A stretch of DNA of 64,000 nt, from contig JBFMHM010000007.1 of assembly GCA_040753015.1 (NCBI GenBank), positions 2,076-66,075 on the forward strand, given 5' to 3'. Positions 4,538 through 25,524 of the stretch are shown here, piece by piece (the stretch's first letter is position 1; each line of letters begins with the position of its first letter). The translations under genes were made by a program, and so were the position numbers. Source of the stretch: Candidatus Omnitrophota bacterium (lineage in GTDB: Bacteria; Omnitrophota; Gorgyraeia; Gygaellales; JBFMHM01). Under the pieces are notes generated by a model that had not been told where the DNA came from, did no database searches, and worked only from the letters and a program-made list of their open reading frames with translations.

Positions 4538-5610
4538 TATTGCCTCTTTATTCCTTTCAAAGCTAAACTTAAATCATCTTTATTATCGGAAAAATCCATG
4601 GCTACTTCCGGGCTAATCTTTTTTTCTTTAATTAACTTCATTAAACACTGATTAAAACTTTGCATACCAAATAACTCCCCTTCTTCTATATAACGCGGAA
4701 TTTCATATTCTTTTGCCTCCCGTATAAGACGGCCGATAGTCGGCGTAAGTATCATTGTTTCATAAGCGGGAATTCTCGCCTTAACATCAATTCTTGGAAT
4801 AAGACGAAGAGAAATTACGCCTTTGAGTAACATTGATAGTTGAAGCCGAATTTGATTATGCTGGTGCGGCGGGAAAAAATTAATAATTCGCTCTATCGTC
4901 TGATAAGCATTAATTGTGTGCAATGTACTCAAAACCAAAACTCCGGTCTCTGCGGCTGTTAGAGCTGCTTTCATTGTTTCTTCGTCGCGAATATTACCAA
5001 TTAAAATAACATCGGGGCTCTGCAAAGTAAATGCCTTTAGAGCAGTAGGATAACAAGAAACATCTATCCCTAAATCCCTTTGATTAACAATTGACTTTTT
5101 ATCTGAAAAAGTGTATTCGATAGGTTCTTCGACGGTTAAGACATGCCTCTTTAAATTCTGATTTATGTATTCAATTATGCTAGCAAGCGTTGTAGATTTA
5201 CCGCTTCCCATAGATCCGGTCAACAAAACTAACCCTCTCCGCTCACAAGAGAGCCGCTTTAAAACCTCCGCGGGCAAATTCAGTTCTTCAAAGCTATCTA
5301 TTTTATTCGGGATATGCCTTACGACAAGCGAAGGTGTATTGCGCTGCTGAAATATACTAACGCGAAACCGCGTAGATAATTCTTCTGAATAATAAGCAAA
5401 ATCAATATCAAGGCATTTTTTATATTTCTCAATCTGTTCCTTAGTAGCGAGTTCCTCGATAAATTTTTGCATATCTTCGGCTGAAAGGATTTTATCATCA
5501 AATGATTCTACCTCACCATTAATCCTTAGGTGAATATTTGCAGCGCTGCGGCAAAATAAATCTGATGCCTTTTTTTCTATCATTAATTTGAATATTTCTT
5601 CTATATGCAT
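4537..5610 (-). CDS. pilT: Type IV pilus retraction ATPase PilT/PilU family (357 aa)
   Basis: Walker A 'LLTGSMGSGKSTTLA', Walker B 'ILIGNIRDEET' and PilT-like size. Its stop overlaps the prfB start (TAATG). Confidence 0.8.
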   Translation of the reverse strand: MHIEEIFKLMIEKKASDLFCRSAANIHLRINGEVESFDDKILSAEDMQKFIEELATKEQIEKYKKCLDIDFAYYSEELSTRFRVSIFQQRNTPSLVVRHIPNKIDSFEELNLPAEVLKRLSCERRGLVLLTGSMGSGKSTTLASIIEYINQNLKRHVLTVEEPIEYTFSDKKSIVNQRDLGIDVSCYPTALKAFTLQSPDVILIGNIRDEETMKAALTAAETGVLVLSTLHTINAYQTIERIINFFPPHQHNQIRLQLSMLLKGVISLRLIPRIDVKARIPAYETMILTPTIGRLIREAKEYEIPRYIEEGELFGMQSFNQCLMKLIKEKKISPEVAMDFSDNKDDLSLALKGIKRQ

Positions 5611-9504: not shown

Positions 9505-10059
9505 TCACCATGCTTCAACGGTTTTTTCGACAATCCTACGCACCAAATCAAAACTTGCCTCTCTGACAATCGTATCATCACTTTTCTCAAGATTGCCTTC
9601 TACAAATGTACTTGTATCGCCGCCATAATTATTTAATTCCCAAAGCATTTTATTATTACGGCTATCATAAAGCCTTACATCTACAAGAATATTTACACGA
9701 TATTCCTCAACCTCATTATCAGCATTATAACGCACTGGGTCTTTACGATAATCAATAAGTTCTCCTGATAAGATCAGATCAGCATTTTTACTAGACACCA
9801 CCCTAAGGCTTCCATCAATAATAAACCTATCAACTAAAGAATTAGTTAACGTTGTTTCAACCCCGGCAGTATATGTCTTATAAATACTGCGGCTACCTTC
9901 CGATGTAAAATTAATCTTATTCTTAAACGGATCTATATGTATTGTTTTTAAATCTGGCGCGAGGGCTGTTTTTGTTGTGTAACCACATCCGGCTAAAATT
10001 GAAACTAAGAAACAAATCTGCACAATCGGTATTATCAATCTACCTAATTTGGAATTCAT
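9505..10059 (-). CDS. lptE: LPS-assembly lipoprotein LptE-like (184 aa)
   Basis: Lipobox 'LAGCG' after a signal peptide, about 180 aa, immediately upstream of holA as in the E. coli leuS-lptE-holA arrangement. Confidence 0.45.
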   Translation of the reverse strand: MNSKLGRLIIPIVQICFLVSILAGCGYTTKTALAPDLKTIHIDPFKNKINFTSEGSRSIYKTYTAGVETTLTNSLVDRFIIDGSLRVVSSKNADLILSGELIDYRKDPVRYNADNEVEEYRVNILVDVRLYDSRNNKMLWELNNYGGDTSTFVEGNLEKSDDTIVREASFDLVRRIVEKTVEAW

Positions 10060-11033
10060 TTTTTCTTTTCCTTCATTTTTTGTGAATGCTCGAGAATTTC
10101 TATAGCCTTTAATTGCCCGCGGGATTTTTCTGCAAAATCAGTATCAGGATAATAATCAATAACTATCTGATAATAAATTTTAGCGGCACCGTAAGCTTTA
10201 TTTTTAAAATAAAATTGGGCAATATCAAAATTATTCCTGGCTTCTTTATTTTTAAGTGAACCGATGTGTTCTTGGGCTTTTTGTGTAAGTTCAGCGTCGG
10301 GATGTTTACTGACAAATTCTTCAAATTTCTCACGTGCTTCTTTAGAATATTCCTGGTCATATCCAACTTTTGGCGATACTCTTTCTAGAGATGCGGCAAT
10401 CTGGAATTTCGCAGGTTCCACCCATTCACTATTCGGATAGTTTGCAATTACTTTTTCAAATTCATCTTGCGCATCAAGATAATAACCTAAATTTTTTAAA
10501 ACAAGCCCGAGTTTATATTGCGCTTTTGCTGCAAGTTTGCCATAGGGAGCATTCTCAACAACTTTTCTTAATATTTCAATAGAAGGGTTTTCTACAGGTA
10601 AGGGTATTTTACCTATTTTCCGTGTCTCACCCTCCATAAACCTTTCAGCGATTGCATATTCTCTCTCTATAACCTCATTCACGCGGCCTGAAAAAGGGTA
10701 TTTATCAATTACCTTCTGGTAAGCAAGATACGCATCATATGAATTCCCTCTATTCTCATAAGACATCCCAATATAATATTGTGATTCCGCGGCTTCAAAA
10801 CACCCGGGAAAATATTTAATAAGTTTTTGAAATTCTTCTATCGCCTTGTCATAATCCTTAGCCTGATAATAATCCATAGCCACTAAAAATTGGTCTTTAG
10901 GATTTTTTCTAACTGTGTATTTTGGATTTACAAATTTTCCGGTTTTTGGCGTCCAAATCCAGTAGGCATAGGAAATTTTAGGCAAAAATAAGCCTAAAAT
11001 TAAAATAAGAATAGTTAGAATTCGTTTGTTCAT
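10056..11033 (-). CDS. bamD: TPR-repeat outer-membrane assembly factor, BamD/YfiO-like (325 aa)
   Basis: Signal peptide plus repeated TPR-like 'YY.A...Y..A...F..L...YP.S' units typical of BamD. Confidence 0.5.
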   Translation of the reverse strand: MNKRILTILILILGLFLPKISYAYWIWTPKTGKFVNPKYTVRKNPKDQFLVAMDYYQAKDYDKAIEEFQKLIKYFPGCFEAAESQYYIGMSYENRGNSYDAYLAYQKVIDKYPFSGRVNEVIEREYAIAERFMEGETRKIGKIPLPVENPSIEILRKVVENAPYGKLAAKAQYKLGLVLKNLGYYLDAQDEFEKVIANYPNSEWVEPAKFQIAASLERVSPKVGYDQEYSKEAREKFEEFVSKHPDAELTQKAQEHIGSLKNKEARNNFDIAQFYFKNKAYGAAKIYYQIVIDYYPDTDFAEKSRGQLKAIEILEHSQKMKEKKK

Positions 11034-11096
11034 AGTTTTAATAATTTACCATAGAGGGATGAGTGTGTAAAGCGTAATTTATATCACTATTACGCT

Positions 11097-11240
11097 ATCG
11101 CCTCGATTTGAATTAGGCTTAAGTCAATACCCCCTGGATCTGGTTGGATTTCTGTAGGGGCAGATCCATGTATCTGCCCAGATAAAATAGGCATTGCCTC
11201 GCCAGCTTGAGCTATATAAGCAACTGCTCGGTCTATGATT
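11097..11240 (-). pseudogene. 48-codon remnant homologous to the C-terminal tail of the downstream giant protein
   Basis: Manual translation: IDRAVAYIAQAGEAMPILSGQIHGSAPTEIQPDPGGIDLSLIQIEAIA*. The giant ORF C-terminus is ...VERAEAYVATVAGDRVSIEQAQGVPTEIQPDPGGIDLSLIQIQPLIS*. The nucleotide match is about 60 nt ('gaattaggcttaagtcaataccccctgg.tctggttggattt', 11110-11160 vs 12638-12690). Confidence 0.65.
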
Positions 11241-11266
11241 AAATTTTGTTTAATCCTTTCGCATCT

Positions 11267-12517
11267 TCATTCCTTTAATAAATATTTCCACGCAGGAATA
11301 ACTTCTATCATTTGGCCTGCTTCCTTCAGCATCCTCTCATTATCCTTAGAAATAACAGATATTTTTTTGTTTTTCGGAAATCTTTTTAAAAAAAGCCTTA
11401 AGCCATCAAATTTTTTGTCTTTCAGGTTAATTTCGGATTGATATTTAACTTCTACCGCACCTAGAACATGAAAATTACTAAATACAAAATCAATCTCCTT
11501 TTCACTTTCTGCAAAATAACCTATTCTGGGCTGTTTTTTAAAAAGACATAGAAATACCGCATTTTCCACTTTTACACCTAAATCACCTTTTCCTGTTAAA
11601 ACGGTTTTTATTCCACTATCAAAAAGGTAATTCTTTTTTTGTGAATATACCCGTTCATTATAAGATGTTGCCCATTTTTCAAGCGGCTTAATTAAAAAAG
11701 ATGCTTCCAAATACCCAATATATTCCTTAACTGTATCAACTGCGATTCCTAATATATTGCCAAGTTTATTAAAACTTGTCCGCGAACCAACAGAGCTAGC
11801 TATAAGCATCAAAAGATCTTTTAAAACAGATATACGTTTTATACTATGTAACCTAACAATATCTCGCACTAGAATATCATCTATCAAATTATTCAAATAA
11901 TCATCTGAAGGATGAAGCGCATTTTCAGGATATCCTCCCCGCATAAGATACTCCTCAAATAGAGCTTCAAATTTATAATCCTCAGACTTTGAAGGTAATT
12001 CTTTTTTAAAAGAAAGATATTCTTTAAAATTTAACGGATATATCACTGTAACGATTTGCCGGCCCGCAAGCCTTCCCTCTTGCCTTTTAATTAAAGAAGA
12101 TGTAGAACCGCTGCAAATTATTTTAACATTTTCTAAATCATACATCGATTTTAGCTCTATCTCCCAACCAGGAGTTTCCTGTATTTCATCCAAAAAAAGA
12201 TAAAGTTTTTTTGAACGCGAATGCATAAAAATTTTTCTAAATAATTTAAGGTGTTCCGTAATGGTAGTTTTAGATAAACGTGGATTATCAAGGCTTAAAT
12301 AAATAATATCTTTTGCCGGAATATTTTTGTGTAAGCACCATTTTATTAGCTGTTTTATAATTGTAGTTTTACCAACCCGCCTTGACCCAATAATTATATC
12401 TATTTGCTTACGGCTAAAAATTTTTTCTATTTTACCTAAATAATCTGTTCTTTGTATGCCACATTCAAATTTTTTATTCTCCCACCAAGGGTTAAAAGCA
12501 TAATACAAATCCTCCAT
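11267..12517 (-). CDS. AAA-family ATPase with DUF4143-like C-terminus (416 aa)
   Basis: Walker A 'IIIGSRRVGKTTIIKQL' and Walker B 'LFLDEIQ'. The architecture matches the widespread AAA_14/DUF4143 'ATP-binding protein' family. Confidence 0.8.
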   Translation of the reverse strand: MEDLYYAFNPWWENKKFECGIQRTDYLGKIEKIFSRKQIDIIIGSRRVGKTTIIKQLIKWCLHKNIPAKDIIYLSLDNPRLSKTTITEHLKLFRKIFMHSRSKKLYLFLDEIQETPGWEIELKSMYDLENVKIICSGSTSSLIKRQEGRLAGRQIVTVIYPLNFKEYLSFKKELPSKSEDYKFEALFEEYLMRGGYPENALHPSDDYLNNLIDDILVRDIVRLHSIKRISVLKDLLMLIASSVGSRTSFNKLGNILGIAVDTVKEYIGYLEASFLIKPLEKWATSYNERVYSQKKNYLFDSGIKTVLTGKGDLGVKVENAVFLCLFKKQPRIGYFAESEKEIDFVFSNFHVLGAVEVKYQSEINLKDKKFDGLRLFLKRFPKNKKISVISKDNERMLKEAGQMIEVIPAWKYLLKE

Positions 12518-12612
12518 AATAACCTCGCTTTCTTATTTAATATAATATATATGAAATCGAAACTTTTGTCAAATAATTTCTATTACAATCGAAACTTTTG
12601 TATTAGAAAAAT

Positions 12613-15600
12613 TCAACTAATTAAAGGTTGGATCTGAATTAGGCTTAAGTCAATACCCCCTGGGTCTGGTTGGATTTCCGTAGGAACACCCTGTGCCTGT
12701 TCAATAGACACTCTATCGCCAGCCACTGTTGCAACATATGCCTCTGCGCGCTCAACTAACGTAGGTTCAGCTTGACCAGTGCGTTCGGTAATTTCTGTTG
12801 GCGATGCACCAACTTGCCTAAGTAGCTGCTCTATTGGATTGCCTGATCTACCACCTTGAACCAATGTTAATCTTGACGGTGGATTTTTAGAATCCGAACT
12901 ACCTGGTTCGTTTCCTGATTCTAGATTAGGATCTAGTGCTTCGGACGCTAACACGCCTAACCTAATTAATTGTGGAATACATTCTGCATCGCCATGATAT
13001 CCTTGCCATTGGCCTTCGTAAAGCGAAAGATGCATCTGTCTATTAATATCTAGAGCAACAATAAAACTTATATTTTTATACTTACCCCAAAGAAATTCAG
13101 CTCTAGAATTATCTTCGTCGCTTGGCTTAACATTATGACCTTCTTCGGGATGATAATGTCCCTGGACATCCTCTATCTGCGATAAAACTCCATTGTAATG
13201 ATGATAATCACCTAGGATTTCATTAACTGAATCAAAATTTCCTGATACACATAATAATATAGTTTCTTTACCTCTTCTTATAACTCTAAAACCCTTTTCT
13301 ATAGCCATTGCGGTAGACAAGATATCTCTAAATTGCGCAACTGTTAAGCTCTTAAGAACAACTATTCTATGTTCAATTCCACTAGGCATTACCAATGATT
13401 TTCGATCTAAGGATTGTTCTATCTTACCCAATAAATCTATCAGCATATCAACTCCTTTAACTCTTTTTCTAGCCTCCTCTATTATTAATTCGCCTATTAT
13501 ATTTGAAAAAATTTCCTTATCTTCATCGATAAATATGCCGTTTTTCCCATAAACATCATTTTGAAATCTTTCAATTATTCTCGCTATCAAAATTTTTAAA
13601 TCTCTCTCATATCTTTTAGTTTTAGTACTAGGATTATCGAGATTTAATCGAATAGCCAATAATAACTCATTTCTGAATATCTCAATAACGCGCTGCATTG
13701 CTTGTTCCCTCTCTCTTTTTGGTATATCACTAGAATGGGTATTATCCAGCAGAGGCCACATTAATTCATCGCTATATTCAATATCACTACAGTCAACACT
13801 TACATCAGTGCCATCATCGAATTTAATCTCTATCATTTTACTACCAAATAAATCTATCCAATTAATTACTCCCTCTTTTCCATTAAATAAAACGCGATCT
13901 CTCTTATGATATAAAATACCCTTAATCGTTAAAGAATCTGCCAGCCCTACACCTGCCGCGGGATTTATTTCCGTATCTGCCACTTCCACACTTGGTGCTT
14001 CTTCACTTGTAGCACAGCTATATTTTGTAAGTAATGGCTCAACATTGTAAGATCGATTTGCTTGTGCATGCAGGCGATTATTTTGTGCATGAGTGATGTG
14101 ATTGCGACGATCAGCGCCGGTGTAATACTGTAATTCAGCATCCCATCCTTGTGCTTCTGTTATTTCATGGCCAAGGACTGTTTGATATTCTGGATTGCTT
14201 TCTCCTAAATTAAATATCTCTTCGTCCATATACACTACAATTTGCCCATAGCTTGCGCCTAAACCAATGTGGCCAAGCTGGCCAGCTGATGAGCCGTCGG
14301 GATGTTTTAGTTCTTTTAAGCCTTTTACTGGGATAATATAAATACCGTTTACTTCTCGAACTAAGCCCTGTTTTTCTGCTGCTTTTAAAGCGGCTAACCG
14401 TCTCGCCCAAAGCCTTGCATCGCCTTCGCCAGGGTTTCTTTCAATATACACTGCCTCTGGAATATTCCTTATACCTTTATCATCTTTACCTCTAATATGC
14501 TCACTTAGCTTTGAGTTAGGCAGCAACGCACCAGAGCCAGCTGCGGGGTTAGTGTCGTCTTTACTGAATCGCACTAAGAGTCTCTTTACCAAATCTGAAA
14601 TCCTCGTTAATATTGATTGTCTATGTCCATACCACAGTTTTAAGTTTGTAATTGAATACTTTGAATCTGCTGGAAAGTTCTCTTGAATTTTTTGTGTAAT
14701 ATTAGCTTTTTTACTAGTGAGTTTTACCATTGCTACATTGATATTAACACGATTAGAGCCTGTGCTATCGCTTACAGCTACTAACACTTGTTCATAGCCG
14801 TTTTTTTGTGCTATTTCTTGGGTTAATTTATTAAGTAACTGTTCTACGAAAGCCTCTGCATTAAGCCTATTTGCAAGAGGAGTCCTTGGCTCAATACCAA
14901 CTATAACTAAAGACTTTTTGCCATTTATAATTAGAGTAAGCGTATATATTGAACCAACAATTCTGCCGTTTTCAATTATTCTGATTGGAGTAAAATTAGG
15001 ATTAAGTAGTTCTTGCGGATAATCTTTTGTACAGTCTTCTCCAAGGTAACCAAAGAAGTAATCTAGTGATGTTTTTGCCGGAATAAATTCAAGATCTATA
15101 ACTTCTGTTCCTTGTTCGGTTGTTATTCTTTGTTTAACAATGCCGGCTACGCGGGTTAGGCCGCTTACCTCGTCAATTACTTGCCTTGTTTCAATATTTG
15201 CTTCTGGTTTTATTTCAGTGAGAATTTCTTTTAAGGTGTATAAGTTTTGCGCGGTTAAAGGATTATCTAGGCTAATTGCATCTAGGGTTTGTTTTAAATG
15301 TGGATTAACAATTAAAACTAATGTTAGCATAAGATCTAAAGAACCTTGAACTTGTTTAATAGTTGGAGTGCCTGAAGCATGTTGTGTATTTAAGGTGATA
15401 ATTTCTTTTATTATCGCGGGATAATCTATTGTTGCGGCATTGGCAGTTAGATATGTTTGGATTTCTTGTTCTATTAGAGAATAATTTCTTTCTTTAGGGG
15501 CTTTTGCTAGTTCTTCTTGTATAGCTGATTGAGTTTGTAAACTAACAACTAAGGCTCGTAAGTTTTCAGGTAATTCATCTAATCTTTGTAATTTAATAAA

Positions 15601-18600
15601 TCTCTCAGTAATTAATTTTGCTAACACCTCTGGTGGAGCTCTTTGAGATAACTGCTTAAGATGGGTAAGCTTTTCTCGGACAAAGGCCTCTTCTTCAGTA
15701 GTTATTCCTTGAAGAACCAATATTCCTGAATATGCCTGCATTGTAAAAGAAGTTGTAAAGTTTGGTTGTGGTATTACTTCATTTTTATATCGTTCTCTTG
15801 TAGAACGATAGGTTTCAAGAGGAAGATTAGTTGAGCCGACAATAGACAGATGCGTTTCTTCTATCAGCTCGTCATCAATAAGGCCTTGTTCTGGTTCGGT
15901 ACCTTCAATAAATGAATCATAATAGAGCTTATAGTTAACTATAAGCCTAGCCCGTTCTTGGCCTTGTAATTGCTTAAACCTAGCGTATAGCTTAGATAGA
16001 TATAAGGATATTTCAAATTGGCTAAAATACCTGCTTATTAAATTTAATTCTTTCTGGATATTCTCTGGAGTAAGTGTTCTTAAGAATGCGTTGTTATTCT
16101 CTAAATTTGCCCCTGATTGCCTGAAGAATCTAATTAATAAATTATAGGTGTTTTCTTCTTTTAACTGCTCTAAGGTAAAGCCATTATTAAGAAGAATTAA
16201 TAATGCCCTTGCTACTGGTGCTTCTTTAAGATTAGTTTCTCTGCAAACTTTGGTTAAAAATTTATCCATCTCATTACTTACTTCATTAACTAATGTTTTA
16301 TCTGCCGTGGTAAGCGTCTCTGCCACAGCTTGAGCAATAGAAGCGAAAGTTTTGGCTTGCAAGTAAGGATCATTAGGGAGTTTTTCTGCTGCGGCAATAG
16401 CTTTAGCAAAAACAACAGCTGCTTCTTGTTCTGGCCTACCTGCTTGTGCCACAGCTTGAGCAATAGAAGCGAAAGTTTGGGCTTGCAAGTAAGGATCATT
16501 AGGGAGTTTTTCTGCTGCTAAGGCAAGGGCTTGTTCAAACCTACCTGCTTGTGCCATAGCTTGAGCAATAGAAGCAAAAATTTGGGCTTGCAAGGAAGGA
16601 TTATTAGTGAGTTTTTCTGCTGCTAAGGCAAGGGCTTGTTCAAACCTACCTGCTTGTGCCACAGCTTGAGCAATAGAAGCGAAAGTTTTGGCTTGCAAGT
16701 AAGGATCATTAGTGAGTTTTTCTGCTGCTAAGGCAAGGGCTAAACGCAAAATTAAATTCTGTTTATGAGCTAATTTTTTAACGATTACTTGTTCATCATC
16801 TGCAACTGTAGCTACTCCTGCCGCGGGATTTGTTTCATTATCTACCACTTCCACACTTGGTGCTTCTTCACTTGTAGCACAGCCGTATTTTGCAAGTAAT
16901 GGCTCGACATTGTGAGTTTGATTTGCATTAGTGTGCAGGCGAGTATTTTGTGCGTGAGTGATGTGATTACGACGATCTGCTCCTATGTAAAATTGTAATT
17001 CAGTATCCCAACCTTGTGCTTCTGTTATTTCATGGCCAAGGACTGTTTGATATTCTGGATTGCTTTCTCCTAAATTAAATATCTCTTCGTCCACATACAC
17101 TACAATTTGCCCATAGCTTGCACCTAAACCTATGTGCCCAAGCTGGCCTGCTTTTGTACCGTCAGGATGTTTAAGATCTTTTAAACCTTTTACGGGAATG
17201 ATGTAAATACCGTTTACTTCTCGAACTAAGCCTTGTTTTTCAGCTGCTTTTAAAGCGGCTAACCGTCTCGCCCAAAGCCTTGCATCGCCTTCGCCAGGGT
17301 TTCTTTCAACATAGACTGCCTCTGGAATATTTCCGCGTTTAGCAATATGTTTACTTAACTCTGAATTAGGCAGCAACGCACCAGAGCCTGCGGCGGGGTT
17401 GATGGAAGATTTAAATGCTGTAACTTCATGATCAAGTCGTACAAGAAAGCTATCTTTCTCTAATAAATCTGTAAGAAAAATGCCTTTTGGGCTGTTTAAA
17501 ATCTCTCCTAAAAGATTAGAATCATGTATTAAAAGCCATCTTACAAAAGCAGCCGAGACAAAAATTTTTCCCTGATCCACAAAACTTATAGCAACCCCCG
17601 TTTCTGCGTCTTCAAAAATAAAATCTACATCTTTTAATAATACAACCTCTGAAGCTCTGTCTCCTAATGATTGAATAACATCCCTAAAGCCAGCGATCAT
17701 ATTATCATTAAAACCAAAATCACACCTTAATCTATTTTGGGAATCTCTAGGTTCTAAGGGCCTGAAAGTCGTTCTTTCAGGAAGAGGGTCTAGATAATCT
17801 ATAAAAGGCTCATATAAAACGATATTTCCTTCTCTAACAACAGCTCCACATGCTCTATTACGCCTTAAAGAATCGGCGATTTTTCGTTGAGCATGATTGC
17901 TGAGTGCCCTTACCTGGCGAGACCAAAGAAATTCACAAATAAATGAACCGAGCAGATCGGATAAGCGATGTCGTAAAATAGAATCGTCCAACTTAGCCCT
18001 CTCTAAATCTACCAACCTCTCTAAATCTGCCGGGCTTCTCCTTAAGATCCAAATCAAAAATTCTTCACTAATCCAAAATCTATTATCCCTAAAATGACTC
18101 ACGATAGCACTGCGTTTTTCTGAATCGTAATAAATAAATGGTCTAGATCGCAAAATAGCTAAAGATATCCCTCGGCTACGTAAATATGTTAAGAATAACT
18201 CAACTCGTCTTTTATCTAAATCGCCAAATTGAATCCCTTCTCCTTCTGGAATAATCCTTCTCACCCTAAAGCCTACTCGGCTAACCCTTGGGATAGATGT
18301 TTGAACAAGCTGATTATCGCTTCCTAAGCTCAATTCAAGAGCTTTTTCTACACCGTTTTCAACAGCACTAGCTAAAATAGAAGATATTTCTGCTTCGTAT
18401 TGCACAGTATCTTCATGAGCTACTTCGTCTTGCGGCCCTTGAACATTTTCTCTTTCTAAACCTAAGCCTTCTTCAACACTGTCTTCCTCTGCTAAGACAA
18501 TCGAAGCTAAGTCGGCTAGTTCGCTATCAGATAAATTTAATGAAAAATTCACTTTTAACTGGCGTAGTAAAATTATTAGTATTTCGTTAGGCAAAGAACC

Positions 18601-20016
18601 AGTCTTATCCCCCTGTAAACATGAAAGTTGATCTCTGTAAATTTCTAGACTCCTCTTATCAAGAGGCACTCGGCCTGGACTACTTTTATTAGACATAAGT
18701 ATAAGAATTACCTTTCCTATCATTTGTTTTTTGATTGTTCTAAGAGCAGCAAAAAACTTTAAATTATTCAATTTAACCTCGGGATACGAAAGTAATCGGG
18801 TAATCGCTACTCCTGCTGCCTCTTTAATAATACCAGCTTGTTTTCCATGTATTTTACCTAGAAATAACAAAGAGTCTCTAATGTTTGAGCTACCTCTAAA
18901 CATAATGCGAATCATAAGAACTACACCGGCTAACTTATTAAGTTCATCTAGTATTTCTTGGAAGTTCAATTTAGTATATATATGCCACATCTGGTCATAA
19001 GACATATTCAAACTTCCCGCTTGAAGGCGAACATAAACCTCTGGTAATGCTTTCTCTATTTGAAATGTTGTAATTGATTTTGCACCCGGAGAAGCTAAAT
19101 CTGAATCTTCAAAATAAGTACTCAGCATCATTTCTATTAAAAACTTTTTAGCAATACTTCTTTCAGTAGGACTAAGTTCCGACATAAAACTAATATCTAA
19201 TCTATCTGCTACACTCTGAATAACCTGACTTTTACTTAATAAACAACGTTGAAGATATCTTGAAAGTTTTTCTCGTGCTTCTGATGACCTATCTTCTAGC
19301 ATATGCAGTGGAACACGAATAATTCCATCTTCCGAAATAGCAAATTCGGTTAATTCAATATCAACTAGCAGAATTACTAAGCCTGAGCATTCATTTTCTA
19401 ACCAAGGATATAATTTAATGGCTTTCTTCAATACATCCTCAAAATAATCTAATTTTTCTTTCACAATAAGAATAGTGGCTGTGGAATCACGCGTGCCCTC
19501 TCGCTTTAATTTATTTGCGCTCATTCGATATTGAGCAAAATTTACATTAGATTGTTGTTGTCTTAATAATTCAGCTCTTACTCTTAAAGCTGTAAGGGCA
19601 TTTTCTTGCCCTGCACCAGCACGCATAGCTTGATATCCAAAATAGAACAAACGGATATACTCCCATGGATTAATGTAAGAATTATCTTGCTGGCCAACCG
19701 AAGCCGTTTGGACTTGTATTTCTTTGGTAATTTCACTAATACCAAAGATAAAAGTTAAGTAATCTTTTTCTTTTTGACTGCGCTCTTTATCAGGCGCATA
19801 ATTTGCTAAATTTCTTTGCTCATCAGACAACGGAACCCCCCAACCTAATTCTTTATTTGCCCAAAGAGCCGTATCCATCTGTTCTCTGCTTGACTTAAGC
19901 GAAACAGCCTGACAATTTGATTCAATCATTTGGATAAAACTAATTTCTGGATTAATAATAAAAACTGTTCCATTATCTAAAACCACCTCAAATGCAACTG
20001 TTTCCTTGCCGCGCAA
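12613..20016 (-). CDS. Giant protein (2467 aa), function unknown. It has an internal ~200-aa duplicated module, four 35-aa TPR-like tandem repeats, and two copies of a 'GHEITEAQ' module. No N-terminal signal peptide.
   Basis: Single uninterrupted ORF in the track. The repeats are visible at both protein and nucleotide level. One region is shared with the neighbouring 1319-aa protein ('AAFVRWLLIHDSNLLGEIL' vs 'EAFLKYLLNHDSKLLEDIF'). Confidence 0.85.
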   Translation of the reverse strand: MRGKETVAFEVVLDNGTVFIINPEISFIQMIESNCQAVSLKSSREQMDTALWANKELGWGVPLSDEQRNLANYAPDKERSQKEKDYLTFIFGISEITKEIQVQTASVGQQDNSYINPWEYIRLFYFGYQAMRAGAGQENALTALRVRAELLRQQQSNVNFAQYRMSANKLKREGTRDSTATILIVKEKLDYFEDVLKKAIKLYPWLENECSGLVILLVDIELTEFAISEDGIIRVPLHMLEDRSSEAREKLSRYLQRCLLSKSQVIQSVADRLDISFMSELSPTERSIAKKFLIEMMLSTYFEDSDLASPGAKSITTFQIEKALPEVYVRLQAGSLNMSYDQMWHIYTKLNFQEILDELNKLAGVVLMIRIMFRGSSNIRDSLLFLGKIHGKQAGIIKEAAGVAITRLLSYPEVKLNNLKFFAALRTIKKQMIGKVILILMSNKSSPGRVPLDKRSLEIYRDQLSCLQGDKTGSLPNEILIILLRQLKVNFSLNLSDSELADLASIVLAEEDSVEEGLGLERENVQGPQDEVAHEDTVQYEAEISSILASAVENGVEKALELSLGSDNQLVQTSIPRVSRVGFRVRRIIPEGEGIQFGDLDKRRVELFLTYLRSRGISLAILRSRPFIYYDSEKRSAIVSHFRDNRFWISEEFLIWILRRSPADLERLVDLERAKLDDSILRHRLSDLLGSFICEFLWSRQVRALSNHAQRKIADSLRRNRACGAVVREGNIVLYEPFIDYLDPLPERTTFRPLEPRDSQNRLRCDFGFNDNMIAGFRDVIQSLGDRASEVVLLKDVDFIFEDAETGVAISFVDQGKIFVSAAFVRWLLIHDSNLLGEILNSPKGIFLTDLLEKDSFLVRLDHEVTAFKSSINPAAGSGALLPNSELSKHIAKRGNIPEAVYVERNPGEGDARLWARRLAALKAAEKQGLVREVNGIYIIPVKGLKDLKHPDGTKAGQLGHIGLGASYGQIVVYVDEEIFNLGESNPEYQTVLGHEITEAQGWDTELQFYIGADRRNHITHAQNTRLHTNANQTHNVEPLLAKYGCATSEEAPSVEVVDNETNPAAGVATVADDEQVIVKKLAHKQNLILRLALALAAEKLTNDPYLQAKTFASIAQAVAQAGRFEQALALAAEKLTNNPSLQAQIFASIAQAMAQAGRFEQALALAAEKLPNDPYLQAQTFASIAQAVAQAGRPEQEAAVVFAKAIAAAEKLPNDPYLQAKTFASIAQAVAETLTTADKTLVNEVSNEMDKFLTKVCRETNLKEAPVARALLILLNNGFTLEQLKEENTYNLLIRFFRQSGANLENNNAFLRTLTPENIQKELNLISRYFSQFEISLYLSKLYARFKQLQGQERARLIVNYKLYYDSFIEGTEPEQGLIDDELIEETHLSIVGSTNLPLETYRSTRERYKNEVIPQPNFTTSFTMQAYSGILVLQGITTEEEAFVREKLTHLKQLSQRAPPEVLAKLITERFIKLQRLDELPENLRALVVSLQTQSAIQEELAKAPKERNYSLIEQEIQTYLTANAATIDYPAIIKEIITLNTQHASGTPTIKQVQGSLDLMLTLVLIVNPHLKQTLDAISLDNPLTAQNLYTLKEILTEIKPEANIETRQVIDEVSGLTRVAGIVKQRITTEQGTEVIDLEFIPAKTSLDYFFGYLGEDCTKDYPQELLNPNFTPIRIIENGRIVGSIYTLTLIINGKKSLVIVGIEPRTPLANRLNAEAFVEQLLNKLTQEIAQKNGYEQVLVAVSDSTGSNRVNINVAMVKLTSKKANITQKIQENFPADSKYSITNLKLWYGHRQSILTRISDLVKRLLVRFSKDDTNPAAGSGALLPNSKLSEHIRGKDDKGIRNIPEAVYIERNPGEGDARLWARRLAALKAAEKQGLVREVNGIYIIPVKGLKELKHPDGSSAGQLGHIGLGASYGQIVVYMDEEIFNLGESNPEYQTVLGHEITEAQGWDAELQYYTGADRRNHITHAQNNRLHAQANRSYNVEPLLTKYSCATSEEAPSVEVADTEINPAAGVGLADSLTIKGILYHKRDRVLFNGKEGVINWIDLFGSKMIEIKFDDGTDVSVDCSDIEYSDELMWPLLDNTHSSDIPKREREQAMQRVIEIFRNELLLAIRLNLDNPSTKTKRYERDLKILIARIIERFQNDVYGKNGIFIDEDKEIFSNIIGELIIEEARKRVKGVDMLIDLLGKIEQSLDRKSLVMPSGIEHRIVVLKSLTVAQFRDILSTAMAIEKGFRVIRRGKETILLCVSGNFDSVNEILGDYHHYNGVLSQIEDVQGHYHPEEGHNVKPSDEDNSRAEFLWGKYKNISFIVALDINRQMHLSLYEGQWQGYHGDAECIPQLIRLGVLASEALDPNLESGNEPGSSDSKNPPSRLTLVQGGRSGNPIEQLLRQVGASPTEITERTGQAEPTLVERAEAYVATVAGDRVSIEQAQGVPTEIQPDPGGIDLSLIQIQPLIS
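13940..14555 (-). repeat. Intragenic segmental duplication, copy 2 (~610 nt, ~90% identical to 16800-17405)
   Basis: Both copies encode 'NPAAGSGALLPNS..LWARRLAALKAAEKQGLVREVNGIYIIPVKGLK.LKHPDG..AGQLGHIGLGASYGQIVVY.DEEIFNLGESNPEYQTVLGHEITEAQGWD.ELQ.Y.GADRRNHITHAQN'. Confidence 0.85.
16310..16745 (-). repeat. Four tandem ~105-nt repeats encoding 35-aa TPR/HEAT-like units
   Basis: Unit 'gcttgtgccacagcttgagcaatagaagcgaaagttttggcttgcaagtaaggatcattag.gagtttttctgctgc...' at about 16315, 16443, 16551 and 16650. Encoded unit: 'EQALALAAEKL(T/P)NDPYLQAQ(T/I)FASIAQA(V/M)AQAGRF'. The antisense ORFs 16290..16499 and 16330..16521 are artefacts of the repeats. Confidence 0.85.
16800..17405 (-). repeat. Intragenic segmental duplication, copy 1
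   Basis: Long near-identical nucleotide runs, for example 'ccacttccacacttggtgcttcttcacttgtagcacagc' in both copies. Confidence 0.85.
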
Positions 20017-20177
20017 TAATCTGCGTAATGTAGCGTGATGAGCACCTTGAGCAACAGCTAATTCTTCGATATTTGTAATTCCTTGAAGTTGGTATTTTTT
20101 AGGAAGGGCTTTATGTGTTAAGTCGGGATAACTAATATTCCAATGATGTTCATTGGCAAGCTCACTAATCGCATTGG

Positions 20178-23100
20178 TTAATTCGGGTGATCGATCTTGG
20201 GGGTTATTTTTTTTGCCTCTAATTCATCGCAGAGTGTTTTGCCTGGCATACTTGTTGAAGAAATTGTAGCAAGATCTTGTAATACTAAAAGGCGTTCTTT
20301 GACTTCATGATAAAGAACTTCTTTTAATTTTGGTGGGGCTCTAAGATGGTTAACATTAAGATAAATCTGCCTGCGGCCTAAAGCATAGTGATCATCTCCA
20401 TTATAAAAAATAATGTCTGTATCTTTAAGTGCCTGCCCTAACCCTAGCTCATCGATTGTATCTTGTAGAAGTTTTAACTGCTCTTGTGATAATTGTATAT
20501 CTTGTTCTCTTATACTAATTACCTCACCTTGCTTGCGTGTTTTTCCGTCTGATTCAATAGTTGCATCTAATTTAAAATCAACTTGGCAAGTTTTGCCACT
20601 TTGCGCATCATACCTTGCCGCTGCAATTTCATTTTCTACGATTGCCTTTTGTATACCAGGTGTATAATCCACGTTCCTGCCATGCCTAAATCCTCGGTGA
20701 TCAGACATTGAGCTACCAGGATTCATAGCTAAAAGCTGTTGAGCAGTTGTGACAACATCTATATTATCACTTCTTATTTTCACCAACTTTGCACTTCTTG
20801 GGTCATCGGTAAAAACAATTCGCCCATCATAAAAATACAACTCACCAGTTAATGGACACACTAAAATCCCTACACCAGTTGGGAAGTGACTATTGGATAG
20901 TCCAACATCCAAACCAGAATATTTTCCTACCCAATAATTACTTAGTGTCTTAGGATGAATATGCCACCACCCAATGGTAATTAATTGAGGTAAAGAATGA
21001 CCGCGCTGATCATTTAACTTATTTCGAAAAGAAGTTGCAGTCGATAAATAATCCATACTAAAAACAAGGCTTCCCGGGCCACGCGTTAATCCTTCATCGA
21101 CTGAATAAATATTTGTAATTACTAAAATATCACCATCACGATAGCCAAACAACAAGCCACCATATTCATTAACATCATTATTATGCGGGTCATTTAGAAG
21201 TTCCTGGCGAAGCCTATTATCAAATCGAACAGTCCGAATACCATCTAACCCTGACAAAGGATTAGTAAGTTCAAAATCTAATAATTCTCCATCATCACTT
21301 GAAGGTGGAAGCAAAAAATCCCCGCGGGGAGATTGATGGGCTGGCTGTGTAGGGTGAACTGCTGATAATTCTGCAGTAGGTGCAGGCATTGCTGGCGGAG
21401 GCAAAGGTTGAGATGCTGGGGGTTGTGCAACTGGCTTGGTCATAATTGCATCAGTTAATTTAGCTACAAGGCTTGTATGATCACTAAAAATATCCGCGGG
21501 TGTAATTTTTCCGCTTATTGATGCATCCTTTAAGATATCCTTTACAAAACCTCTAACCATTAAATATGTAAAAATCCTTTGGTCAAGCGGATAAAACCCC
21601 GGCCAAACAAAATTAAAAAATAAATGTCTCTCAGAAGTATACCGACGACCACCAACATGTCTAGTGCCTCCCTCATAAGCCGATTTTGTTTCTACACAAA
21701 CATCGTTTAGAATAAGCTGCGGTACAATTTTTGGCTGAGCCGCCAATACAGATTGTAATCGCGATAATAAATCCTTTAGCTCTACGTCAATTGTTTCTGC
21801 ATTTAAGCCGCGTACCCTCGCGATAACTTCTTCTGCAAAAGAAAGCGCTTCTTTGTAATCTAACTGGTGTAAGTACCGCATATCGGTAGTAACACCTAAA
21901 ATATCTGTAACAAGCTCTCTAGAAACATCAACGCCTGCGCCAACGAAAAACGCAGTCATTATCGAGCCTTGTTTTACAAGTACTTCGTTTGCAATTTTTG
22001 TTCCTAATCTCCAAATTAAATTAGAAGAATCATCGGAATCTATTTCAATTACAGAACCTAATTCTTCTGGCCCTACAACAATAGAAACTCTTCTTATCCC
22101 ATTTAACATTATTTTAAGACTTGCTATTTTATCTTCTATTCTTCTAGCCCAATCACTCCAATCACTAGTATCAGTACTCATGACTAACCCAGGTCGTAGT
22201 TGAGCAACCGCTGTCCTAAGCCGTTGGCTTTCAGCCTGTTTTCTTTTAGCGCGTTCTTCAGGTGTTATAGATAATTTTTCTATAATATCATCTAACATAC
22301 GCTTTACTGGCCTATTCTGACTAGCATCAAATGATCCTGGAAGTATTACAGTAATTCCCGTCATTTTTCTAATTGCTGCTTCAACCCTCTGTAAAAGTTC
22401 ATTGTAGTCGGAATCCGTATCATGAGAATAATCTGGTTCATTCAAATGACGAAGGTCGTGGCGGAAGATGTCTTCTAGAAGTTTTGAATCATGATTTAAA
22501 AGATATTTTAGGAATGCTTCTGTAAGCCAAATTCTTCTGCGTTCTTGGCTAAAGATACCGCCAGCTACTGTTGCACCTGCATGGGTATAGGCAAAAGATG
22601 CACTATCTTGAGGTTGATAAAGCACAGGGCCCCTGCGATCAAGGCCAATACGAAAACCATTAATTTCTCCCTGAGGCAGGCTAGCCCATATTCTAACAAG
22701 TTCTCTTTGCTCTCCCTCTGTAAGATTTACTGCTTCTTGCCTAGTTAATTCACGAAGATTATCAACTGCATTATTTGGCATATTCCTTTGCACAATTCGT
22801 CCATCCTCAAAGCTCAACTCTACTACCGCGCTTGGGCCAACTGCAATTGCTGCTCTAAGATGCGGATTCACCTCTCTATTATTATCCGCATTGCCGATGT
22901 TAACAATATCACTTCTCGGCAATCGCCCCACCTCACTAACTGTTGCAGTCCGCTGGACAGAAAGCTCTCCAGTTTGCGCAAAAAGCATACCACCACTTGT
23001 GTAAGTTCTTTTAATTTTACGATTTAATTCTTTTTGATCTTGGGTATCTATAAGTTTATATTCGCCTTTTGTTGAGTTTAGGTAAGATTTATAAATTTGC

Positions 23101-24137
23101 TCTGGTTTAAATTTAAGATTATTGGTTTTTTGATAAGAATTTATTAATTGTTTTAACTTTTCGTTTTTCTCTTTACTCTTTACGCTTTTTTTGTACCACT
23201 GGGCGAGAATGAGTGCTTGATAAATTTGTCTAAGTGGTTCATAGGCTTTGTCTTGGTTTACTCGTTGAGTTAGTTCTGGGAGTATCAGTTGTTTTAGTTG
23301 AGATTCACAATATTCCTGTAGTTCTTCAGTTCGTTTGTCATTAGAAATTGGGATTTGGGATTTCTCAAGGTATTCGCTTTCTAGAAGCACCTTGAGCGTT
23401 GCTTTAACTATTGTAATTGAATCTTTAGTTTCGTAGACTTTAGCTTCATCAGGAACTATCCAGACGCGGAAGGTGGTAGGAATAGATACAGTTCGACTGT
23501 TCGTCAGTTCTTCGGTTCTTAGGTTTTGATTTTCATTTTGATTTTTGGTTTGTATATTTGATATTTGATATTTGATTTTTGATTTTTCTAAAGCTTTAGC
23601 CTTAGAAAACACTCTTTCCCAATAGGTTTTAGCATTTTTACCATAACCGGGTAATAATTCAAAGGCTGTGTCTTTCTTTAGTTTTAGGTCTAATACTAAA
23701 AGCGCTTTACCTAGGTCAGTGTCAGCAATTGAGTTACCGATGATTCTGCTTGGATCGTTTGGATTTAGGTTAACCCAAAGGTCTTTGTAGTCTATAGATA
23801 GGCTAGTAAAGAAATAATCTAGAAGCTCTTTACTTTTAAGCTTCTTCTGTTGTTCTGATATGTTGCGAGGAAGAAAGTTGAAATTAAAATTAAACCCAGA
23901 ATTTAGAGAAAGCGAAACGAATGTTGCATTTGGTTCGGGGACTTTAAGGCTAACAGCTTGGCCAAAGCTAATACTCTGGCAAAGAAATGTAAATGCCAAA
24001 AATAGACAAAAAATCCTTCTTGTAAGACTTATTTTATTCATTATAAATTTTTTGAAAAAGTGGACAAAAAATAACCCCTCACATATGCTTGGGGGTCGCC
24101 AGACTTCGTCGAACTCTGACGAGATATGTTTATTCAT
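20178..24137 (-). CDS. Giant secreted protein, function unknown, with a JAB/MPN (JAMM-like) domain near the C-terminus and a C-terminal 'YHEV' module. Annotated as 1319 aa from the track's first Met; the probable true start at the internal Met (24041) gives about 1287 aa with a signal peptide.
   Basis: An internal Met at about 24041 begins a classic signal peptide, 'MNKISLTRRIFCLFLAFTFLCQSISFGQA'. An MPN core 'EYGGLLFGYRDGDILV...GWWHIHP...YSGLD' lies at about 20880-21180. There is a low-complexity NQNENQN stretch at about 23530-23600. Confidence 0.85.
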   Translation of the reverse strand: MNKHISSEFDEVWRPPSICEGLFFVHFFKKFIMNKISLTRRIFCLFLAFTFLCQSISFGQAVSLKVPEPNATFVSLSLNSGFNFNFNFLPRNISEQQKKLKSKELLDYFFTSLSIDYKDLWVNLNPNDPSRIIGNSIADTDLGKALLVLDLKLKKDTAFELLPGYGKNAKTYWERVFSKAKALEKSKIKYQISNIQTKNQNENQNLRTEELTNSRTVSIPTTFRVWIVPDEAKVYETKDSITIVKATLKVLLESEYLEKSQIPISNDKRTEELQEYCESQLKQLILPELTQRVNQDKAYEPLRQIYQALILAQWYKKSVKSKEKNEKLKQLINSYQKTNNLKFKPEQIYKSYLNSTKGEYKLIDTQDQKELNRKIKRTYTSGGMLFAQTGELSVQRTATVSEVGRLPRSDIVNIGNADNNREVNPHLRAAIAVGPSAVVELSFEDGRIVQRNMPNNAVDNLRELTRQEAVNLTEGEQRELVRIWASLPQGEINGFRIGLDRRGPVLYQPQDSASFAYTHAGATVAGGIFSQERRRIWLTEAFLKYLLNHDSKLLEDIFRHDLRHLNEPDYSHDTDSDYNELLQRVEAAIRKMTGITVILPGSFDASQNRPVKRMLDDIIEKLSITPEERAKRKQAESQRLRTAVAQLRPGLVMSTDTSDWSDWARRIEDKIASLKIMLNGIRRVSIVVGPEELGSVIEIDSDDSSNLIWRLGTKIANEVLVKQGSIMTAFFVGAGVDVSRELVTDILGVTTDMRYLHQLDYKEALSFAEEVIARVRGLNAETIDVELKDLLSRLQSVLAAQPKIVPQLILNDVCVETKSAYEGGTRHVGGRRYTSERHLFFNFVWPGFYPLDQRIFTYLMVRGFVKDILKDASISGKITPADIFSDHTSLVAKLTDAIMTKPVAQPPASQPLPPPAMPAPTAELSAVHPTQPAHQSPRGDFLLPPSSDDGELLDFELTNPLSGLDGIRTVRFDNRLRQELLNDPHNNDVNEYGGLLFGYRDGDILVITNIYSVDEGLTRGPGSLVFSMDYLSTATSFRNKLNDQRGHSLPQLITIGWWHIHPKTLSNYWVGKYSGLDVGLSNSHFPTGVGILVCPLTGELYFYDGRIVFTDDPRSAKLVKIRSDNIDVVTTAQQLLAMNPGSSMSDHRGFRHGRNVDYTPGIQKAIVENEIAAARYDAQSGKTCQVDFKLDATIESDGKTRKQGEVISIREQDIQLSQEQLKLLQDTIDELGLGQALKDTDIIFYNGDDHYALGRRQIYLNVNHLRAPPKLKEVLYHEVKERLLVLQDLATISSTSMPGKTLCDELEAKKITPKIDHPN

Positions 24138-24294
24138 ATCTTATTATATGTTAATTATACCTTATAAATAGCCTAAAAACAAGGCTCTGGAGGCTTTTTT
24201 TGAAAGCGGTTACAACCAATTAGTATTTACATCATAACTTATTATATATCAGGTAGTTAAGCAATCATTAACTACTAATATAAAACTAATAGAA

Positions 24295-25524
24295 TTAAAA
24301 TTGATAATTCGGCTTATATACAAACTGACGGCCGTGTTTAGATTTAACAAGAATTCCCTTTACGACCAAATCCTCAAGATCATGACGTGCAGTTTCATAA
24401 ACAACCTTAAACCAACCTTCATAGGCCTTAATAATTATCATCCTTTTATCACTTACGAGAAATTTTTTAAGAAATTTATCCTGGCGCTCATTAAGCAGAA
24501 TCCCTTTTTCTCTTAGCTTAACAAAAACAAACTCACGTTGATAATGTTGAGCGATTCGCTCACTAACAAGCCGCATAGACTCTAAAATTGTATCCGATAG
24601 ATACAGTAAGAAATAAGTCAAATCAGCATTGCAATCTTCTACATCTTTAATGGCCCTGTAATACTGTATTTTTGTCTTCTGAACAACCGCTGATATAGAA
24701 AAATATTTAAAAAATTCATATCCGTGTTTAATCATAAAATAATAGAACAACGCCCGTGCAGTCCGGCCATTACCATCGAAAAATGGATGAATATAAACAA
24801 AATAAAAATGGATAAAAGACGCTCTAATTATAGGATGAATAAAACGCTCATCATCTTTACTATTAACCCACTCAACTAGTTTTCTCATTGCTGGTTCAAT
24901 CTGCTCTGCCTTAGGCGGCGTATAAATTATAATATCGCGCCGCTTGTCTTTAATATAAACCATATCATCACGGAAGCGCCCAGCATAAGCTTCATCTTCA
25001 AAAAGAGTTTCTTTAGTCACAATTTTATGCAATTGCAAAATAAAATCTAAAGATAATTCTCTATGCTTCTCTTGCAAGATAAATTGCATAGCCTTATAAT
25101 TATTTAAAACCATTTGATCATTAATATCTATAGGCGATTTTTTTTCTTCTACTAATTCACGTAAACGCTTCATAGTTGAGAAAGCCCCTTCAATAACACT
25201 TGAATAAAGCGCTTCTTCTATTAACGAATCTTTCACGAGTTCATTTTCAATTTCTTTCTTAACAACCCGATATAAAGAATCTTTACCACTCGAATCTATT
25301 TCGTAAATTCTTTTCTGTAATATTGGCGTTAAAAAATACCAAAAATTTTGATTATTTTGATCTATAAACGGCAAGCCCTCTGATTTCTGTTTTCTAAACT
25401 TAATTGCCTCTTGCCAAAACTCCTCTAAAGATAATTCGTTCGGAAGCCTATAACCAATTTCTTCTTTAGATAGATAACCTTGAACAGAAAATTTATTTAT
25501 AAATTCATTTATATTAGTATTCAT
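24295..25524 (-). CDS. fic: Fic-family protein (AMPylase-type), 409 aa
   Basis: Canonical Fic motif 'HPFFDGNGRTARALF'. It sits immediately upstream, on the same strand, of the giant secreted protein. Confidence 0.85.
   Translation of the reverse strand: MNTNINEFINKFSVQGYLSKEEIGYRLPNELSLEEFWQEAIKFRKQKSEGLPFIDQNNQNFWYFLTPILQKRIYEIDSSGKDSLYRVVKKEIENELVKDSLIEEALYSSVIEGAFSTMKRLRELVEEKKSPIDINDQMVLNNYKAMQFILQEKHRELSLDFILQLHKIVTKETLFEDEAYAGRFRDDMVYIKDKRRDIIIYTPPKAEQIEPAMRKLVEWVNSKDDERFIHPIIRASFIHFYFVYIHPFFDGNGRTARALFYYFMIKHGYEFFKYFSISAVVQKTKIQYYRAIKDVEDCNADLTYFLLYLSDTILESMRLVSERIAQHYQREFVFVKLREKGILLNERQDKFLKKFLVSDKRMIIIKAYEGWFKVVYETARHDLEDLVVKGILVKSKHGRQFVYKPNYQF

Follow-up and report, generated by a model that had tools for sequence, protein, structure and literature searches.

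A candidate defence ATPase cassette between a giant gene and its putatively severed 3' end in a Candidatus Omnitrophota genome

Introduction

Integrase-less islets with att-like direct repeats, which constitute cis-mobilizable elements, and islands that insert into the end of a gene and restore it, such as those targeting dusA or tRNA genes, are established forms of mobile DNA. Orphan C-terminal modules, in turn, are known from the polymorphic toxin loci of Rhs and CdiA proteins. Here we describe a locus with likeness to these systems, located in a 64 kb stretch of DNA, in the following termed the window, from the metagenome-assembled genome of a Candidatus Omnitrophota bacterium (contig JBFMHM010000007.1, positions 2,076 to 66,075). 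In this locus, the gene of an ATPase is placed between a giant open reading frame (ORF) of 2467 amino acids, G2467, and a short stretch of DNA resembling the end of this giant gene, to which we refer as the relic.

The ATPase is related to the candidate defence system PDC-S01, in which an ATPase is fused to a PD-(D/E)XK domain (PMC12988326, PMC3424549). The respective domain, DUF4143, has been placed in the PD-(D/E)XK superfamily (PMC3424549), and PDC-S01 reportedly ranks fourth in frequency among candidate defence systems and still awaits validation (PMC12988326). In the PDC-S01 papers that were consulted, we found no account of a conserved operator or promoter travelling with the subfamily, nor of an insertion into the repetitive end of a gene. 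A sequence-only reading of the window had considered a former tandem pair of giant genes as the simplest origin of the relic. Our analysis instead favours a single gene, into whose repetitive 3' end one cassette carrying the ATPase would have inserted, thereby severing its last ~49 codons. To this explanation we assign about an even chance, whereas we are confident of the broader claim that the relic is a genuine and recently coding giant-tail sequence, which was separated from its gene by the arrival of a PDC-S01 cassette.

Results

A relic of the giant-gene tail downstream of the ATPase

The minus strand of the window encodes G2467 (12613-20016 (-)), whose C-terminus reads VPTEIQPDPGGIDLSLIQIQPLIS up to the stop codon, followed by the ATPase gene (11267-12517 (-)). 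The relic homology begins 27 nt past the stop codon of the ATPase, with which it shares both strand and reading frame. It extends over 11093-11239, with the sequence IIDRAVAYIAQAGEAMPILSGQIHGSAPTEIQPDPGGIDLSLIQIEAIA terminated by a TAA at 11090-11092; the region downstream of the ATPase, in frame with its stop codon, reads RCERIKQNLIIDRAVAYIAQAGEAMPILSGQIHGSAPTEIQPDPGGIDLSLIQIEAIA up to the same end. The sequence-only reading had thus located a decayed twin of the tail correctly, immediately downstream of the ATPase and on its strand, with coordinates (11097-11240) that are off by a few bases. The flanking repeats that it had proposed to look for are found in a direct repeat of 54 nt (11105-11158 and 12631-12684; 51/54 identical, 94%) that brackets the ATPase gene with a spacing of 1526 nt, located 113 nt before its ATG and 109 nt after its stop codon. 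A tblastn search of the relic against the giant tail within the window retrieved 27 of 49 identities (55%; E = 7e-10 and 3e-11). Similarly, when the 27 residues preceding the relic core were searched alone in all six frames of the 64 kb, the best non-self match was the segment directly upstream of the G2467 core, with a score of 37 compared to 33 for the next, unrelated one. The giant-gene tail is the closest match of the relic, as had been anticipated, and the 27 residues upstream of its core appear homologous to this tail in their own right.

Since the window is part of a metagenome-assembled genome, the arrangement might in principle reflect an assembly chimera of two strain haplotypes, which we regard as barely conceivable: its junction would be expected at the shared core, which would not account for two diverged copies arranged one after the other, with the 3' end of the ATPase abutting the relic, and the longest identical stretch within the repeat comprises just 29 nt.

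The end of G2467 as a tandem array, probably interrupted by the cassette

The peptide PTEI occurs four times in the six frames of the window. Three of these occurrences fall in the described region, two within G2467 (aa 2406 and aa 2445) and one in the relic, and G-[ASV] precedes each of the three. As judged from this periodicity, the C-terminus of G2467 is a tandem array of units starting with PTEI. Its first unit U1 (12685-12801 (-), aa 2406-2444) consists of PTEITERTGQAEPT and LVERAEAYVATVAGDRVSIEQAQGV, the latter half being termed ext-L. The second unit U2, which starts with PTEIQPDPGGIDLSLIQIQPL, is interrupted by the cassette. It opens with core-L (12631-12684 (-)), 54 nt encoding PTEIQPDPGGIDLSLIQI, beyond which the present giant ORF ends with QPLIS and a TGA (12613-12630 (-)). 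On the far side of the ATPase, the relic continues with ext-R (11159-11239 (-); IIDRAVAYIAQAGEAMPILSGQIHGSA), the proposed severed second half of U2, and then with unit U3, which reads PTEIQPDPGGIDLSLIQIEAIA up to its stop codon. The latter contains core-R (11105-11158 (-)), again 54 nt encoding PTEIQPDPGGIDLSLIQI, and EAIA followed by TAA (11090-11104 (-)), where the giant ORF is proposed to have originally ended.

Deletion of the 1382 nt between two TTAAT pentamers (12620-12624 (-) and 11238-11242, both codon-aligned as TTA AT) creates one open frame that contains LIQIQPLIIDRAVAY and proceeds to the terminal EAIA, with the residues around the junction reading LIQIQPL-IIDRAVAY...EAIA. The global alignment of U1 with the rejoined U2 scores 55, compared to 15.3 +/- 5.0 in shuffled sequences (0/5000). 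A local alignment crosses the junction without gap, pairing QAEPTLVERAEAY with QIQPLIIDRAVAY of the previous unit, and the local score to U1 increases from 37 with the actual upstream sequence to 49 with QPL in place. The match of QPL to EPT, three residues outside the core, is associated with p = 0.011, and that of the 5-mer with p = 0.002.

These features suggest that the two halves of the tail were once contiguous. Before insertion, the tail would have contained U1 (PTEITERTGQAEPT-LVERAEAY...GV), U2 (PTEIQPDPGGIDLSLIQIQPL-IIDRAVAY...GSA) and U3 (PTEIQPDPGGIDLSLIQIEAIA with its stop codon), and the predicted sequence of the empty site would contain CAACCTTTAATCATAGACCGAGC, with GATCCAACCTTTAATCATAGACCGAGCAG as the corresponding string. 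A cassette of ~1.38 kb, comprising a palindromic operator and a sigma-70-type promoter, the gene of the 416-residue ATPase and a 3' flank of ~27 nt, may have entered U2 just past QPL by illegitimate recombination, possibly at the TTAAT microhomology. QPL would accordingly be native, while the last two codons and the stop of the present giant ORF (QPLIS) would lie in inserted DNA, and the last ~49 codons, encompassing the second half of U2 and U3, would be left untranslated between the ATPase and bamD. The present stop codon of the giant gene is thus probably secondary. Since the array is periodic, the new end equals the old end shifted by one unit, which explains why the relic resembles a twin of the present tail.

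Coding constraint on both copies of the core

The two cores differ at three positions, all of them silent third-position transitions (S = 12.7, N = 41.3, dS = 0.285, dN = 0), whereas ext-L and ext-R differ at 30 of 72 aligned positions (dS 0.72, dN 0.57). This difference between ext (30/72) and core (3/54) is pronounced if all sites are considered (Fisher p = 3e-6) and not significant for silent sites alone (p = 0.28). In a model of neutral decay, it is improbable that all of the 41.3 non-silent sites of the core are preserved when ext differs at 42% of its positions, even at half of the ext rate (P <= 1e-4), and likewise that all three changes are confined to silent sites (P = 0.013). Nearly the entire divergence of both cores therefore took place under coding constraint, which, together with the homologous ext, lends substance to the previous description of the relic as coding sequence derived from the giant gene and indicates that it was coding until recently. 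The core dS is close to that of the other internal repeat of G2467 (0.36). With a tail organized as an array, the uneven divergence of ext and core is expected without gene conversion, because the comparison of ext-L with ext-R would concern U1 and U2, whereas that of core-L with core-R would concern U2 and U3.

A core dN of zero would equally be displayed by a relic that is still functional, either as a small ORF of 34 aa that starts with the ATG at 11194 or, upon read-through of the in-frame TGA of the ATPase, as an extension of its C-terminus. The frame, which is open for 58 codons and shared with the ATPase, would permit both, yet a shared frame has a chance of 1 in 3, the recent severing of the tail explains the silent-only pattern equally well, and the ATG lacks a usable ribosome-binding site, with the sequence GGCGAGG ending 2 nt before it. 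No homologous small protein was found, and the relic region contains no terminator or stable fold (z = -1.4) and shows neither an unusual fold nor a match to an RNA family, as is also the case for the entire region 10000-26000 when scanned against Rfam. A functional relic thus appears very unlikely.

Architecture of G2467 and the proposal of a second giant gene

Internal repetition is found also elsewhere in G2467. A domain of ~200 residues with the motif GHEITEAQGW is present twice (aa 872 and aa 1822; dS 0.36, dN 0.086), and its first copy is followed by four Ala-rich repeats of 35 residues. Homologues in other proteins are confined to residues ~1272-1800, with identities of up to 50% (P0122-P0130), and in these proteins the corresponding module constitutes the C-terminal end; G2467 thus looks like a fusion. 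When its last 1200 residues were compared to 1.84 billion representative proteins, 126 matches were obtained, of which nearly all non-self ones map to ~1272-1800 and three (P0227, P0159 and P0204) extend to the second repeat copy or a JAB-like stretch. None of the non-self matches covers the last ~70 residues (U1, core and end), the C-terminal 450 residues found no match among 5.8 billion proteins, and a profile of tail and relic retrieved no protein with even three common 5-residue words. A JAMM-like motif near aa 2300 (HYHPEEGHNVKPSDED), noticed by eye, was not confirmed by either Pfam or PADLOC.

These searches bear on the previously suggested tandem pair, according to which a third giant gene downstream of G2467 would have been nearly completely deleted or replaced upon arrival of the cassette, leaving its last 48 codons. 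Its proposal is understandable, as two large ORFs are already arranged in tandem, G2467 contains internal duplications, both tails share the succession of ext, core, four to five residues and stop, and a silent-only divergence of the core is expected for two functional paralogues. However, a homologue of the tail was not found in either of the two protein libraries, and tandem paralogy is not established at this locus, since G2467 and the preceding 1319-residue ORF (G1319), which were considered as paralogues, are barely related (best BLASTP E = 0.006). The scenario would also require a deletion that sets in no more than ~13 nt past the end of G2467 and leaves exactly 48 codons of the other gene, in addition to an insertion, and it predicts neither the homology of QPL and EPT nor the gap-free register across the insert. 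We thus consider it rather unlikely and no longer the simplest reading, given that the tail itself is an array of PTEI units, that the relic continues this array in register and that joining at TTAAT restores one ORF. The favoured insertion into a single gene would account for all of these features and thus require neither a second gene nor a deletion.

The ATPase and its conserved upstream region as portable unit

In the 416-residue protein, an AAA_14 domain (PF13173; 1.5e-31, residues 38-168) with Walker A (GSRRVGKTT) and Walker B (LFLDEIQ) motifs precedes a DUF4143 domain of the PD-(D/E)XK type (PF13635; 2.8e-23, residues 218-359). The PADLOC model of the candidate system PDC-S01 (PDLC04787) matches end to end (5.6e-87, residues 20-415 on 10-408/412). 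At the level of its sequence, the ATPase conforms in every respect to a regular member of PDC-S01/COG1373, and it may act in defence. Its closest non-self homologue is 69% identical, and homologues of 51-69% identity are encoded in metagenome-assembled genomes labelled Omnitrophota, Desantisbacteria, Nitrospirota, Syntrophales and Desulfobacterales, where they are found as lone genes among unrelated neighbours (pabC-like/purH, uvrA, patatin, AbiEii, glycosyltransferases and PemK). More distant relatives (<=32% identity) reside on 438 plasmids, and a viral scan gave no match. The assignment as an AAA/DUF4143 ATPase of a kind that populates variable loci, and as an inserted element, is thus in line with our data.

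Our comparison covers 96 fetched loci, of which ~19 represent independent ATPase loci. Despite a very different G+C content, all of the latter share a conserved region of ~80 nt before the ATG. In the window, this 5' region of the cassette (12518-12612 (-)) contains the palindromic operator AGTTTCGAttgtaaTAGAAATT at 12575-12596, a -35 element TTGACA at 12567-12572, a third half-site AAAGTTTCGATT at 12555-12566 and a -10 element TATATT at 12544-12549, and its promoter scores 11/12. Equivalent elements, consisting of the palindrome AGTTTCGA-N6-TCGAAACT, TTGACA, the third half-site and a -10 box, are located at 50-130 nt before the ATPase ATG in L035-L046, L050, L062, L072, L080, L090, L091 and L095. 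Among the 96 loci, 17 contain the exact palindrome TTTCGA-N6-TCGAAA as a single copy, invariably placed before the ATPase gene, and it is absent from the 34 Omnitrophota bamD loci; a relaxed form occurs once in the window. On the opposite side, conservation ceases within about 11-20 nt. In the 3' flank of the window (11240-11266 (-), 27 nt), similarity to the equivalent position of L039 is seen for the first ~11 nt past the stop (AGATGCGA). The conservation of the 5' region, compared to that of the 3' flank, suggests that the portable unit comprises operator, promoter and ORF. The operator would be bound by the DNA-binding part of the ATPase itself and, as a guess, could confer autoregulation.

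The conserved operator begins 13-17 nt past the giant stop (12599-12613), which compares to distances of 0-20 nt from the stop of the upstream gene in L062 (2871-2889), L072 (~2932-2945) and L090 (~2919-2940). Cassettes thus tend to sit at the 3' ends of genes, and the insert may supply some of the upstream stop codons. Half-sites (TTTCGA/TCGAAA) are also found 7-40 nt past the ATPase stop in 4 of the 19 loci (L035, L045, L072 and L080, not in the window), which corresponds to 5.4 per kb over a background of about 1 per kb. This mild enrichment indicates that some cassettes carry the motif at both ends.

Two homologues deserve separate mention. In Candidatus Desantisbacteria (P0070; L080-L089), one identical ATPase is found solely on contigs of <5 kb (34 index blocks), many of which end soon past the gene, a pattern that is typical of multi-copy or strain-variable sequence that breaks assemblies. 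In L072, a gene of 93 codons directly upstream of the ATPase homologue (2651-2932) matches the PemK toxin and, weakly, AAA_14, and may thus represent a toxin gene fused to, or overlapping with, a fragment of an older ATPase copy.

Repeats flanking related cassettes

In L037 and L038, a cassette with a 64% identical ATPase is bracketed by a sharply bounded direct repeat of 44 nt (89% identical; 4847-4890 and 6329-6372 in L037, 109-152 and 1591-1634 in L038) in a geometry of 111 nt and 77 nt. The repeat comprises the ribosome-binding site and the first 11 codons of the downstream purH, and its upstream copy forms a dead start (MYKIKRALINVFWQ, followed by a stop codon). A repeat of ~45 nt in L044 is ambiguous, as it belongs to a local repeat family, whereas L045 and L054 contain distant REP-like repeats, and at least 10 of the ~19 homologous loci are devoid of any flanking repeat. 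In a control where upstream and downstream flanks of different loci were combined, 0 of 378 pairs matched at E < 1e-5. Target duplications as a general feature of PDC-S01 cassettes, a notion considered at first, are thus confined to the window and L037/L038.

The similar placement of repeats in the window, L037/L038 and L044, combined with the clean control, would be compatible with a 54-nt repeat that was generated as target duplication during insertion, or that represents attL and attR of a small integrative cassette, with the original end displaced downstream. This origin appears distinctly doubtful. The rejection of neutral decay for a longer duplication (P <= 1e-4 and P = 0.013) rules out that all 145 nt arose as a plain target-site duplication, and duplication of the core alone is unlikely because ext-R, as the element-side flank, would then have to originate from the cassette, in conflict with its homology to the giant gene. 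There is furthermore no integrase, transposase or terminal inverted repeat, at least 10 homologous loci lack flanking repeats and that of L044 belongs to a local repeat family. Equally doubtful is the more general idea of the PDC-S01 gene as a self-mobilising or cis-mobilised one-gene cassette, as opposed to passive cargo. Its insertions would be directed to the ends of genes and copy some tens of target nucleotides (54 in the window and 44 at purH), with the operator doubling as recognition site of the protein at the cassette edge.

A relic of purH upstream of the cassette in L037/L038, with an intact purH downstream, would also suit the mirror image of an allelic or xenologous replacement. 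In the window, DNA from a related strain carrying a divergent giant allele and the cassette would have undergone homologous recombination, either inside the giant gene or ahead of it, and would have been joined illegitimately just before the last 48 codons of the resident gene, in a homology-facilitated illegitimate recombination following natural transformation. The divergence pattern suits two functional alleles and, as comEA adjoins comEC in the window, competence is plausible. Such replacement would demand a donor with the cassette directly behind its giant gene, and does not predict the homology at the junction, and neither a second allele nor a relative is known; it is thus considered improbable.

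Genomic setting

The relatives used for comparison are BamD-anchored loci from 34 Omnitrophota genomes (BamD 42-58% identity), which share the gene order leuS-comEA-comEC-bamD-lptE-holA-murJ-uvrC. In most of them, comEC and bamD are separated by 60-450 nt, and a few carry unrelated inserts (HEAT/C25 peptidase; Fur and Fe-S ATPases; TetR and SPFH; PilZ). In the window, this position is occupied by a block of 14.6 kb (11034-25629 (-)), which contains the genes of a SoFic-like Fic protein (24295-25524 (-); 2e-50) and of G1319 with its JAB domain (20178-24137 (-); 5e-5), followed by G2467, the ATPase and the relic. The first conserved gene past the island encodes a BamD/YfiO-like TPR lipoprotein (10056-11033 (-)). 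None of the block genes has a homologue in any of the 34 loci and none of the 34 contains a giant gene between comEC and bamD; the whole block is lineage-specific. Within the island, no integrase, transposase or second giant gene was found in the ORF list or by Pfam and PADLOC, no tRNAs are located at its borders, and neither island nor cassette stands out in G+C content.

With its SoFic-like Fic, the JAB-containing 1319-residue ORF and the PDC-S01 ATPase, the block has the flavour of a defence island, and the comEC/bamD junction constitutes a hot spot with other, unrelated inserts in L003, L008, L013, L026 and others. Further upstream, a predicted tRNA-Ala(GGC) (29850-29923 (-)) overlaps with the beginning of leuS as called mechanically (ORF 27359-29896, TTG start); the true start of this gene probably lies further downstream.

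Discussion

The properties of the locus are best captured by a scar left in the repetitive end of one giant gene. The insertion of the ATPase would be in line with the presence of the same type of cassette and operator as a lone gene in unrelated contexts at ~19 independent loci, and with the fit of its edges, since the operator starts soon past the giant stop and the relic homology 27 nt past the ATPase stop. Several observations weigh against it. The homology at the junction depends on three residues outside the core, and the TTAAT pentamers at both junctions, even if codon-aligned, are by themselves not significant in DNA of 33% G+C, where they are expected by chance. Both copies share the layout of an Ala-rich stretch, an 18-residue core, four to five residues and a stop codon, as would two paralogous or allelic ends, and the favoured model has to accept, at odds of roughly 1 in 10, that the truncation happened to fall five residues past a core. 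Neither an empty site nor a relative confirming the contiguity of both halves was found in the loci of the 34 relatives or in the protein libraries. Finally, the 44-nt duplicate in L037/L038, which cannot be explained by pre-existing protein repeats, hints at a duplication mechanism linked to insertion.

The described interpretation has consequences for annotation, as the 48-codon twin should be called neither a small gene nor evidence for a lost paralogue. With a relic that is still open and a dN of zero, the locus offers a dated footprint of the entry of a very common and uncharacterised candidate defence gene into a genome. It delimits the travelling unit to the ORF with about 80 nt in front of it, which hold operator and promoter, and roughly 20 nt beyond, with the palindrome TTTCGA-N6-TCGAAA as a handle on the possible self-regulation of these ATPases and on their movement. 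It also suggests that the ends of giant genes in Omnitrophota can consist of tandem units that tolerate truncation.

The locus is neither an integrase-type island, nor a transposon, nor a polymorphic-toxin array, as defining features of each are absent. It contains no site-specific recombinase, the ATPase being the only ORF of at least 100 residues between the repeats, no transposase domain in Pfam and no inverted repeat bracketing the cassette. The tips beyond the cores consist of just QPLIS and EAIA and are accompanied by neither RHS or toxin domains nor an immunity gene. Readings of the PDPGG motif as an Rhs-type element or a sorting signal were dropped, as no domain supports them.

Collectively, the comparison with described systems places the locus closest to an insertion scar on the side of the target, and to a regular PDC-S01 unit on the side of the insert. 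With PDC-S01 it shares a single-gene unit next to genes of a defence type, which is the SoFic-like Fic in the window and AbiEii, PemK and Fic in homologous loci, and in the protein itself we found no difference. As in integrase-less islets and gene-end islands, the insert lies between direct repeats of ~50 nt and the target remains intact, with a displaced copy of its end on the far side; the locus differs from these in the lack of a recombinase, in an inner flank that is homologous to the target and in a repeat that constitutes a conserved coding motif with silent-only changes. The repetition of a conserved DPxG-containing motif downstream of a very large gene is reminiscent of the orphan modules of Rhs and CdiA loci, yet in the present case only four to five residues follow the motif, toxin tip, immunity gene and RHS or haemagglutinin repeats (Pfam) are missing and the intervening gene encodes an ATPase. 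Finally, as in a severed 3' end, an intact foreign gene is located between two pieces that rejoin in frame, of which the downstream one would be unexpressed, although it is still open in this locus. What distinguishes it from such a scar is the nature of its target, a tandem-repeat C-terminus: truncation leaves such a gene with a near-identical end, and the scar thus mimics the tail of a paralogue.

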